A stretch of DNA of 61,972 nt, from assembly GCA_964344605.1 (NCBI GenBank), contig CAYFNR010000004.1, forward strand, positions 1-61,972. The letters run 5' to 3'. Every line of letters starts with the position of its first letter. Positions within the stretch are counted from its first letter, which is position 1. Positions 37,107 to 40,183 of the stretch are shown piece by piece. Made by a program: the position numbers and the translations under genes. Origin of the DNA: Candidatus Woesearchaeota archaeon. GTDB taxonomy: Archaea > Nanobdellota > Nanobdellia > UBA10117 > ARS21. The notes under the pieces were generated by a model. That model was not told where the DNA came from, did no database searches, and worked only from the letters and a program-made list of their open reading frames with translations.

Positions 37107-37556
37107 TTAAAAGCTTTTTGACTCCGCTAAATCCAAAAGTTCAAGAGCAACCATTTTAACGTCATCAAGTAATTCTCCATCGTTCTCTAAGTCCTCACGA
37201 TAAAACCATTTCATCTCATCAGCCCCACCATCAGGAATATTCAACTCATCAGTCTCAGACTTTGCAAAATAAACCATGTCAATGTGCTGATGAAACTCGT
37301 TAATATTATGTAACATTATATGAAAAGGTCCTATTAATTCCTCACCGTTGCTACACTTCAAAAGAGGTTTTGGAATTATTAATTCCACATCCAAACCAGT
37401 TTCTTCTTTTACTTCTCGTACTGCAGCATCTGGAGGTAACTCATCACGATCTATATGTCTACCAACTGGAATCCATATTCTTAGCTTTTTATGAAAATGT
37501 AACAGAACATGATTATTAAATAAAACATAAGTTGTAGCAGTGAAATGTCGGGTAAC
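37107..37556 (-). pseudogene. Nudix hydrolase with no canonical start codon (possible GTT start or pseudogene)
   Basis: Frame open from 37556: VTRHFTATTYV...WIPVGRHIDRDELPPDAAVREVKEETGLDVEL; an in-frame TAA lies immediately upstream. Confidence 0.7.
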
Positions 37557-38209: not shown

Positions 38210-38617
38210 TCAGAATTTTCTTTTACTGTAGTTAGACATACCTAAAATGTACACCGAATGATTTCCCTTGTTATTTTTATACATTGCTCCAATTAAGCGA
38301 TCGCCTGATGGAACATGTGCAACAACTTTTATAGGGGTTGCATTCTCGAGAAGTGACTGTAAATCATCATTCAAACCTGAGACAAGTCGGTCATAATCGG
38401 CTTTAAGTCTAGCGTCGGAAGGCCTTATTGGGACTATTCCATTATGTTTTCCCTTACTTGGACCCCTATATCCATGCCTAATTGCCGCATTTCGAAGCTT
38501 ATGAATTTCATCCATAGGAAATTTTTTCGGAAAAACATCTAGTTCTGCCAGAAATTTTCTGTCAAATATAATCTCATCTAAGATTACTCCACTCCTGTCA
38601 GTTCCAAATGAAGACAT
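38210..38617 (-). CDS. hypothetical protein, 135 aa (weak RelE-like pattern)
   Basis: ATG ORF directly downstream of metG. Confidence 0.65.
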   Translation of the reverse strand: MSSFGTDRSGVILDEIIFDRKFLAELDVFPKKFPMDEIHKLRNAAIRHGYRGPSKGKHNGIVPIRPSDARLKADYDRLVSGLNDDLQSLLENATPIKVVAHVPSGDRLIGAMYKNNKGNHSVYILGMSNYSKRKF

Positions 38618-38633
38618 ACTAAGATTAAGAACT

Positions 38634-40127
38634 TCAGTTTATTAAAAGTTTTGTGAACAAATGCTTGCCTCTTTTCACTTTTGTTCCTGAATTGATCTTG
38701 GGATCTTTTAACTTTGGGACTGACTTCAAACCAAGCTGTTTAGATATTTCTTCGGCTTTGGAAGGAATTATTGGATAAACCAATGTAGATATTACTCTTA
38801 AACTCTCAGCTAAAGTGTAAAGAACGTTGTTTAATTCCTTTCCAGAAAGAGTCCATGGTTTCTTAGTGTCTATATACTGATTAACTCTAGCTATAAACAA
38901 CCAAATAGAGTCCAATCCATGGTGAAATTGAAAGTTTTCAACATATTTATCAAGATCTTTTAGAGTTTTATTTAGTGCTTTTTCTAATCCCGAATCAAAC
39001 TTTCCCACCGGGATTTTACTACCATTTTTTTCAATTAAATTTATAGATCTACTAAGTAAATTACCTAAATTATTAACTAATTCAGCATTGTGTCTAGAAA
39101 CAAGATCTTTTTCTGAATAAGCGCCATCCTGATTAGAAGGGATTGCTCTAAGAAGATAATATCTCAAAGAAGGAGTTCCATACTTCTTAATTTGATCTTG
39201 TGGAGCAATTACATTTCCAAGTGTCTTAGACATCTTTCTACCTTTTGCATCGTTGACCATTCCATGAACTAACAGTTCTTTTGGTGTTTTAATCCCTGTA
39301 GAAAGCAGCATTGCTGGCCAATAAACTGCATGAAATCTAGATATATCTTTGCCAATTAAGTGAACATCAGCTGGCCATAATTTATTGAATTTTTTAGCAT
39401 CTCGCCCGTATCCTATACCCGTTAAATAATTAGATAAAGCATCAGTCCAAACATATATTACTTGATCTTTGTCTCCAGGAACAGGTATTCCCCAAGGCAA
39501 CCGACTTTTAACTCTGGAAAAACTAACATCTTCAACGTCTCCTCGAAGGAAAGATAAGACTTCATTTTTTGCTCTTTTAGGTTGAATCTTATATTTATCT
39601 GACTCAATTAATTTGATTAATTTAGTTTTATACTTTGACAACTTGAAAAAATAATTCTCTTCTTCAATAATTTCTATTTTCTTTCCTGGATGAAATTGGC
39701 ATTCTCCATTTTCTAACTCACTATCTGTTTTGAACATCTCGCAACCCACACAATACTTTGCTTTGTAAGACTTTTTGAACAAATCACCTTTCTTTTCTAA
39801 CAATTTCCATATCTTTTCAACTCCAGGCCAGTGCTCTTTCTTATCTGAAGTTCTTATAAAATTGTCATACTCAATGTTTAGTACTTTATAAAAATCCTTG
39901 AACTTTTTTGTATTAGTATCAGCAAGTTTTTTTGGAGTTAATCCAGCTTTCTGAGCAGTTTGGAATATTTTAATCCCATGCTCGTCAGTTCCAGTCTGGT
40001 AAAAAACATCTTCGCCTTTTTGTTTATGATATCTTGCGATAAAATCAGCTAGTACTTTCTCGTACGCGTGTCCAAGATGTGGTTCTGCATTTGGATAATC
40101 TATTGCTGTAGTTAGGTAAAATTTGAT
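38634..40127 (-). CDS. metG: methionine--tRNA ligase (short, bacterial-type); no ATG at the N-terminus, putative ATC start
   Basis: Frame open from 40133: (I)KFYLTTAIDYPNAEPHLGHAYE, GTDEHG, YVWTDAL, IGKDI, KMSKT. The ORF track missed the first ~108 codons. Confidence 0.92.
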   Translation of the reverse strand: MKFYLTTAIDYPNAEPHLGHAYEKVLADFIARYHKQKGEDVFYQTGTDEHGIKIFQTAQKAGLTPKKLADTNTKKFKDFYKVLNIEYDNFIRTSDKKEHWPGVEKIWKLLEKKGDLFKKSYKAKYCVGCEMFKTDSELENGECQFHPGKKIEIIEEENYFFKLSKYKTKLIKLIESDKYKIQPKRAKNEVLSFLRGDVEDVSFSRVKSRLPWGIPVPGDKDQVIYVWTDALSNYLTGIGYGRDAKKFNKLWPADVHLIGKDISRFHAVYWPAMLLSTGIKTPKELLVHGMVNDAKGRKMSKTLGNVIAPQDQIKKYGTPSLRYYLLRAIPSNQDGAYSEKDLVSRHNAELVNNLGNLLSRSINLIEKNGSKIPVGKFDSGLEKALNKTLKDLDKYVENFQFHHGLDSIWLFIARVNQYIDTKKPWTLSGKELNNVLYTLAESLRVISTLVYPIIPSKAEEISKQLGLKSVPKLKDPKINSGTKVKRGKHLFTKLLIN

Positions 40128-40183
40128 TTTAGCCTACCTCCAATTATGAATTAAGTTGTAAAAATAAGTATTAAAAGCTATTG

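Follow-up and report, generated by a model that had tools for sequence, protein, structure and literature searches.

A putative near-cognate AUC start on the methionyl-tRNA synthetase gene of a Woesearchaeota archaeon and its relatives

Where does translation begin on an essential gene when no canonical start codon lies ahead of its catalytic signature? The question is raised by metG, which encodes a class I methionyl-tRNA synthetase (MetRS) on contig CAYFNR010000004.1 of a Candidatus Woesearchaeota archaeon (assembly GCA_964344605.1, positions 1 to 61,972 of the forward strand; this whole stretch of 61,972 nucleotides is called the window below). On the minus strand the 5′ region of the gene reads ATAATT GGAGGT AGGCTAAA ATC AAA TTT TAC CTA ACT ACA GCA ATA GAT TAT, and its features are collected in Table 1. 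The stop-to-stop frame opens at a TAG; between this stop and the conserved KFY strand there are only the codons GCT AAA ATC, and ATC is followed by KFYLTTAIDYPNAEPHLGH. The first ATG, GTG or TTG in the frame is codon 109, located 108 codons after the ATC, and the first ATG is codon 131, both being past the HIGH motif. A preliminary description, made from the letters of the window, had claimed that metG has no canonical start until past its HLGH signature and that a Shine-Dalgarno (SD) sequence points to ATC, and both statements are correct. The SD-positioned ATC appears to be the only plausible initiation codon, and we consider it likely that metG is translated from this near-cognate AUC.

The base calls are genuine. 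Two further contigs, one at the European Nucleotide Archive (run ERR2281800) and one from Logan (run ERR2281801), match the window base for base over the SD, the TAG and the ATC, and a 91%-identical metagenome-assembled genome (MAG) at NCBI, GCA_964645925.1, reads GAGGT-ATTTGAA-ATC-AAA-TTT-TAC. Furthermore, we collected 20 metG copies of the family (f1) to which the genome carrying the window (G000) belongs, together with a sister contig, L148. In 15 of these 21 copies (14 from f1, and L148) there is no canonical start before KFY, only ATC or ATT. The N-terminal stretch is translated in the ATC frame, since its 129 codons differ from those of the 91% relative at 25 synonymous and only 8 non-synonymous codons (pN/pS 0.08), with changes distributed 3/3/29 over the three codon positions. 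The part of the protein that public annotation discards is thus under strong purifying selection.

These observations bear directly on the possibility that the ATC is a consensus or assembly error, or that metG is a pseudogene whose work is done by another MetRS. The preliminary description had offered an ATG-to-ATC consensus error and a T lost from GGT-A[T]G-GCT as simpler explanations. Both are excluded by the identity of independent assemblies from different runs and by the occurrence of ATC or ATT in most relatives; an ATG restored by the missing T would moreover directly abut the SD. It had also envisaged a second intact metG, with this copy decaying. The genome is about 89% complete, and a second copy could sit on the missing sequence. 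However, metG is single in the 568-kb assembly, where no second metG was found within this completeness (the other matches were other class I synthetases), the relatives also have one metG per genome, and the frame and motifs are intact, with the low N-terminal pN/pS given above. We regard artefact or decay as very improbable.

The start codon across the family and its history

The close f1 relatives came from genome, metagenome-contig and protein-collection searches, the genome-contig locus search having given at most 52% identity. The 14 f1 copies that start with neither ATG, GTG nor TTG are those of G000, its two other assemblies, the 91% MAG, G005, G003, G002, G006, G004, G008, G010, L147, and P0008 from two Logan assemblies (L241 was read; the identical protein lies on L242). 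In 12 aligned f1 copies the homologous start column holds eight ATC, three ATT, one ATG and no ATA, and ATA is absent from this column in all collected copies; P0008 has ATT. Most aligned copies have an in-frame stop three codons upstream, at which position G007 has TAA and the g3 genomes TAG. All family copies retain an SD-like core, every copy with AUC or AUU (AUY) included. The sister L148 (Ga0187833_10019892) reads AGAGGG-ATAAAA-ATC, again with no canonical start, in the codons TAA GGA TTA AGA GGG ATA AAA ATC GTT AAG AAG AAA TTT. The AUY state would be old; it is found through most of the family.

The remaining copies differ in the place of their canonical codon. ATG stands at the homologous codon in G007, P0002 and P0003, a canonical start lies two codons upstream in G001 (TTG) and L146 (ATG), and P0007 and P0012 have GTG further upstream.

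Two other ways to start the gene were considered and rejected. The Leu5 codon is a possible TTG start only in G003, G007, L147 and P0008; G000 has CTA at this place, and what is conserved in KFY is the protein sequence. An upstream mini reading frame with reinitiation (TTG GAG GTA GGC TAA) is not kept in relatives.

Outside the family the situation is ordinary. Among 146 other metG 5′ ends from DPANN archaea and the candidate phyla radiation (CPR), 143 are canonical (133 ATG, 9 GTG and 1 TTG), the exceptions being L147, L148 and L087, the last of them ambiguous. L087 (JAWADS010000008.1, Aenigmatarchaeota) has an in-frame ATT and an out-of-frame ATG beside a run of six A, and this is either an ATT start or a homopolymer error.

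How did the family come to this start? The MetRS tree unites all AUY copies in a single clade (support 95/96); L148 comes out as its sister, on a long branch and with weak support. P0007 and P0012, which carry the in-frame GTG, are nested inside this clade. The start of P0007 is GAGGTGATTACGTTCAAAAAATTTTAT, translated MITFKKFY, and that of P0012 is GTG ATT AGA ATC GTC AAA AGG TTT TAC. Neighbouring families share an N-terminal extension of the type M-I-x-F/I (MITFAK, MISFPK, MINFAK, MRAFAN). In the alignment the GTG of P0007 and P0012 falls on the GAGGT(A) of f1, so that the f1 'SD' appears to be the remnant of an old GAGGTG start region. The indels after GAGGT(A) vary by lineage, being 2 nt shorter in G000 and 3 nt shorter in g2.

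In this scenario the AUY state of metG would derive from the loss of an older GUG start (GAGGUGAU..., with the MITF-type extension), after which initiation would have moved three to four codons downstream to AUY and the GAGGU remnant would have been reused as SD. Apparently the GUG either disappeared in a single event and was regained twice, or it disappeared repeatedly in separate lineages. Canonical starts seem to have returned later on at least two branches, one with ATG (G007/P0002/P0003, support 97/92) and one with an upstream NTG (G001/L146). The C/T toggling at the tips (G005/G003 and G002/G006) fits transition bias. metG would thus illustrate start-site migration by stepwise turnover: GUG loss, reuse of the remnant as SD, AUY, and canonical regain.

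Many metG genes of the order (L016, L022, L033, L034, families f3 and f7; L235, L243) start at a GTG inside an SD-like GGTGAT or GAGGTG, and their products share a short extension conserved at the N-terminus, M-I/R-x-F/I-(A/P)-K. Their promoter geometry suggests near-leaderless GUG mRNAs.

How AUC could be read

The G000 genome (568 kb, 17 contigs, 38% G+C) has Nanoarchaeota, Woesearchaeota and Pacearchaeota MAGs as its nearest named genomes. Its tRNAs identify it as archaeal: some contain introns, and the initiator tRNA(CAU) has A1:U72 together with a GGG/CCC anticodon stem. The organism is of the Nanoarchaeota/Woesearchaeota type within DPANN. The 16S rRNA ends in GGATCACCTCCTTT, and the anti-SD used for the metG duplex energy is this genome's own 3′ end, GGAUCACCUCCU. 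The archaeal initiation factor aIF1 (PF01253) is present, as it is in 23 of the 25 genomes searched, and its own gene begins with ATG. Loss of aIF1 is therefore ruled out as the cause of the AUC start. So is a dedicated AUY-reading initiator tRNA, because tRNA-Ile(GAU) is an ordinary elongator and the sole initiator-type tRNA has CAU.

From the sequence we infer where the transcript starts, that the SD is used, which tRNA initiates, that the protein begins with methionine and that the process is of weak efficiency, as follows. A transcript directed by the TTTTAATA box would begin about 3-5 nt before the SD, with a leader of about 18 nt, SD included. GGAGGU in this short leader would pair with the 16S 3′ end and so bring the AUC, which follows after an 8-nt spacer, into the P site. 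The ordinary Met-tRNAi(CAU) would pair there with A and U, the third-position mismatch being tolerated, and the protein would start with methionine as MKFYLTTAIDY; the expected N-terminal peptide is MKFYLTTAIDYPNAEPHLGHAYEK, or the des-Met form KFY.... Such initiation would be weaker than at AUG and opposed by aIF1; indeed, the metG start should be weak because aIF1 is present with a normal ATG. The strong SD and the unstructured, A/U-rich surroundings would partly compensate. The relative that encodes P0008 has the same GCTTTTAATAC block and the same promoter geometry.

Published work gives the background. The Sulfolobus 30S:aIF1A:aIF2:Met-tRNAi complex can bind an AUU model mRNA, which aIF1 prevents by proofreading (PMC4705826). 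In Pyrococcus, aIF1 is active on mRNAs led by an SD, with local scanning taking place (PMC6237735), and about 30% of the putative alternative initiation sites in Haloferax ribosome profiling are near-cognate codons (PMC7261190).

Several facts weigh against SD-led initiation at this AUC. The genome has aIF1, by which AUU is rejected in Sulfolobus. If the TATA-like box TTATTTTTAC were used instead, the mRNA would not include the SD, and initiation would have to depend on the 5′ end of an 8-nt leader. In the g3 genomes the distance from SD to ATY is 12 nt, which is long, and some of them have a better-spaced in-frame ATT two codons upstream, so that the exact AUY used may differ between genomes.

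Some of these facts fit a different route to the same codon, in which AUC is used but is not SD-led: the mRNA would have retained a very short leader from an ancestor whose GUG transcript was (near-)leaderless, the 30S-Met-tRNAi complex would load from the 5′ end, and initiation would occur at the first near-cognate codon. In relatives of the P0007 type a TTTTTAAG box precedes the GTG by about 27 nt, a near-leaderless geometry, and the f1 'SD' is homologous to the old GTG start region; the long g3 spacing points the same way. However, no mode of initiation is known to depend more strongly on a cognate AUG than the leaderless one. The promoter-like TTTTAATA box of G000 and P0008 lies about 27 nt before the SD, far enough for the SD to be included in the mRNA. 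The SD-like core is kept in every AUY copy, and the SD strength of metG and of radA (see below) is in the top 6% of the genome. We find this route unlikely, and SD-led initiation at the AUC remains our preferred reading.

If this reading is correct, metG would be a clean case, backed at the level of the population and of the family, in which an archaeal ribosome must initiate at AUC or AUU on an essential gene despite aIF1, and the leader with its AUC would be a natural template for in vitro work on archaeal start-codon fidelity.

Further peculiarities were noticed among the tRNAs of G000. In the initiator tRNA(CAU) on contig C8:18566-18641 (+), position 33 is C (anticodon loop CCCAUAA), where U is usual. 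A U33 initiator (GGGCTCATAACCC) is found in seven other f1 genomes, and C33 otherwise occurs only in G015 (family f6). The C33 initiator coincides with the genome that holds an extra, private ATT start on radA; the metG AUY start does not need it, and as a cause of the latter it is ruled out, because the seven U33 genomes include AUY ones. An intron-containing tRNA-Ile with anticodon UAU on contig C1:1160-1272 (-) reads AUA directly. ARAGORN found no elongator tRNA-Met in this 89%-complete genome.

Rarity of AUY starts and the question of regulation

Is the metG start part of a general relaxation? Among the 603 long open reading frames (ORFs) of the genome, metG has the longest lead without a start, 110 codons (median 5, 99th percentile 54), a value far outside what chance would give. 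Its SD:anti-SD duplex, at -10.7 kcal/mol, is among about the strongest 6% of 555 genes. A second gene, radA (contig C1:17500-18511 (+), locus L038), is start-less too: it reads TGA AAC AAA ATT CCA AGA AAG behind the SD GGGGTGA, whose duplex of -10.9 kcal/mol again belongs to about the strongest 6%, and the distance from the SD-core G to the start codon is the same 9 nt as in metG. The HhH domain of RadA precedes the first canonical start. Four further assemblies, which come from three runs, have the same ATT, and the column is ATG in 10 of 10 other f1 genomes. Public calls cut RadA to 286 aa, into the HhH domain.

An energy-based scan adds a single candidate, on contig C2:81043-81888 (+) (GGAGAGTGATTTAA-ATT), and nothing else convincing. 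The ATT of this 281-aa ORF is the first codon after the stop and stands behind GGAGAGTGAT-TTAA, an SD which at -13.4 kcal/mol is among the strongest of the genome; the first canonical codon lies 9 codons downstream and has no SD. We regard it as a probable third AUY start. The genome-wide scan for SD plus near-cognate starts, which the preliminary description had proposed, thus returns a single candidate beyond metG and radA, which makes about 3 of 555 genes (<1%). Relaxed start usage throughout the genome is not supported, as two censuses over about 555-600 genes yield these three. This organism seems to tolerate AUY starts on two conserved genes at least.

The preliminary description had gone further and supposed that near-cognate initiation on the gene that charges initiator tRNA could form a feedback loop. 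The AUY would then be kept by selection as a regulatory weak start, and MetRS synthesis would be tied to aIF1 stringency or to the supply of Met-tRNAi, in a loop resembling that of infC and IF3. The AUY does persist across lineages down to 60-65% protein identity, possibly into the sister L148, the ancestral start was seemingly also a weak codon (GUG), the trait is specific to this lineage, given the 143 of 146 canonical starts elsewhere, and aIF1 is known to discriminate against AUU (PMC4705826).

Several results stand against this idea. RNAalifold on 12 f1 5′ regions predicted no conserved structure or operator at the metG start (0 pairs, 0 kcal/mol). An anticodon-loop-like, CAU-containing string in the G000 leader, UUCAUAA, was rejected as an operator, being absent from relatives. 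The presence of aIF1, with its own ATG start, lends the loop no support. MetRS is not the fidelity factor, and a shortage of Met-tRNAi would be expected to reduce initiation at a mismatched codon instead of raising it, so that the logic is weak. The private ATT of radA stands behind an SD as strong as that of metG, and the feature hence calls for no reason peculiar to metG. The C/T-only pattern at the start column fits transition bias. Finally, canonical starts stand on three f1 branches (the ATG of G007/P0002/P0003, the upstream NTG of G001/L146, the GTG of P0007 and P0012), and this looks more like a tolerated weak start that was repaired or retained than like a selected regulatory device. 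A regulatory weak start is therefore, in our judgement, improbable, although it stays alive as a regulatory or dosage-setting role because weak starts, GUG and then AUY, persist for long on metG.

We are similarly doubtful of the specific proposal that the metG start was held weak (GUG, then AUC or AUU) by selection and that MetRS synthesis reports start-codon stringency. If it were true, relaxed aIF1 proofreading or idle 30S subunits would lead to more MetRS and more charged Met-tRNAi; initiator-tRNA supply would be coupled to initiation demand, an archaeal counterpart of the infC/IF3 loop acting via a different gene.

Near-cognate AUH starts (AUA, AUC or AUU) are a known class. In E. coli, infC (encoding IF3) and pcnB have AUU start codons. 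The yeast aminoacyl-tRNA synthetase genes GRS1 and ALA1 start at the non-AUG codons UUG and ACG, and E. coli thrS is an autoregulated synthetase gene with a structured, tRNA-mimicking operator next to its SD. The nearest parallel is infC (its AUU start is summarised in PMC4705826): in both cases an essential translation gene would have as its sole start an AUH near-cognate behind an SD, of a codon class rejected by the fidelity factor (IF3 in bacteria, aIF1 in archaea). The AUU of infC, however, is experimentally tied to autoregulation by the gene's own product, whereas MetRS is not the fidelity factor and the logic of a loop through it is weak. Moreover, the present host is an archaeon with aIF1 and aIF2, not IF3, and from one relative to another the metG codon alternates between AUC, AUU and a canonical start.

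The Haloferax volcanii profiling sites (PMC7261190) resemble the metG start in that archaeal ribosomes are engaged at codons one mismatch from AUG. Those sites are putative alternative or extra ones and were set aside by the authors, whereas metG, an essential and conserved gene, would have no start other than its near-cognate codon, which persists across the family. GRS1 and ALA1 are likewise synthetase genes with near-cognate initiation; there the non-AUG codon lies upstream of an AUG and gives a second, mitochondrial isoform, whereas metG would have one isoform and no AUG alternative that keeps the HIGH motif. The feedback idea has in common with thrS that a synthetase controls its own translation initiation, and differs from it in lacking any counterpart of the structured operator, with 0 predicted pairs at metG. 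What is new here is metG as the gene, with the near-cognate codon as its apparent sole start, the depth of conservation, the confirmation by independent assemblies, the probable origin from a lost GUG, and the documented mis-annotation.

The encoded protein, its annotation and neighbouring genes

The MetRS translation matches Pfam PF09334 (tRNA-synt_1g) with E=3.4e-103 and 345.9 bits (cut-off 20.1) and the anticodon-binding domain PF08264 above cut-off (E=1.9e-10); PF19303 gives E=1.5e-4 and 22.1 bits, under its 23.5-bit cut-off. Full-length relatives of the product are 75-77% identical.

Table 1. Positions of metG, its signatures and its upstream elements in the window
Feature	Position	Strand	Remark
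metG (class I methionyl-tRNA synthetase)	38634..40127	minus	497 codons, ATC to TGA (38634-38636)
ATC, putative near-cognate start codon	40125..40127	minus	only codon one mismatch from ATG between TAG and KFY
Shine-Dalgarno GGAGGT	40136..40141	minus	8-nt spacer to ATC; complementary to 16S 3′ end
In-frame TAG closing the metG frame	40134..40136	minus	3 codons upstream of ATC; overlaps GGAGGT
HIGH signature, HLGH, residues 17-20	40068..40079	minus	upstream of any canonical start
KMSKS signature, KMSKT, residues 298-302	39222..39236	minus	motif in MetRS translation
First in-frame canonical-type codon, TTG (Leu109)	39801..39803	minus	start there would lose HIGH motif
Internal ATG (Met131)	39735..39737	minus	start taken by public gene callers, giving 367 aa
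TATA-like TTTTAATA	40169..40176	minus	in the 56-nt intergenic spacer; recognised from sequence only

Translation table 11 lists ATT, ATC and ATA as starts. Standard gene callers nevertheless truncate metG, because they do not allow starts at ATC or ATT. The public annotation of this MetRS (P0009, 100% identical, found on several contigs) has 367 aa, with about 130 residues lost. The 91% relative is publicly annotated from the TTG codon of Leu109 (386 aa), and the call for another relative has 477 aa. Truncated calls drop the catalytic HIGH motif, and an essential function can in this way look broken or absent in DPANN genomes.

One other ORF of the window lacks an early start. In the Nudix hydrolase ORF at 37107-37556 (-) the stop-to-stop frame enters the NUDIX domain at residue 7, and its first ATG, GTG or TTG is codon 54; the codons after its TAA, GTT ACC CGA CAT TTC, include no one-mismatch near-cognate. 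Relatives with 38-39% identity start with ATG and are too distant to account for the missing start. It may be a 5′-damaged gene.

Directly after metG, at 38210-38638 (-), the window holds a 142-aa ORF without a Pfam match. The C-terminal tRNA-binding domain PF01588 is missing from the MetRS of the f1 family and present in that of neighbouring families (about 615-670 aa). In the relative that carries P0002 it forms a separate 109-aa gene (L238:1881-2210) that overlaps the metG stop.

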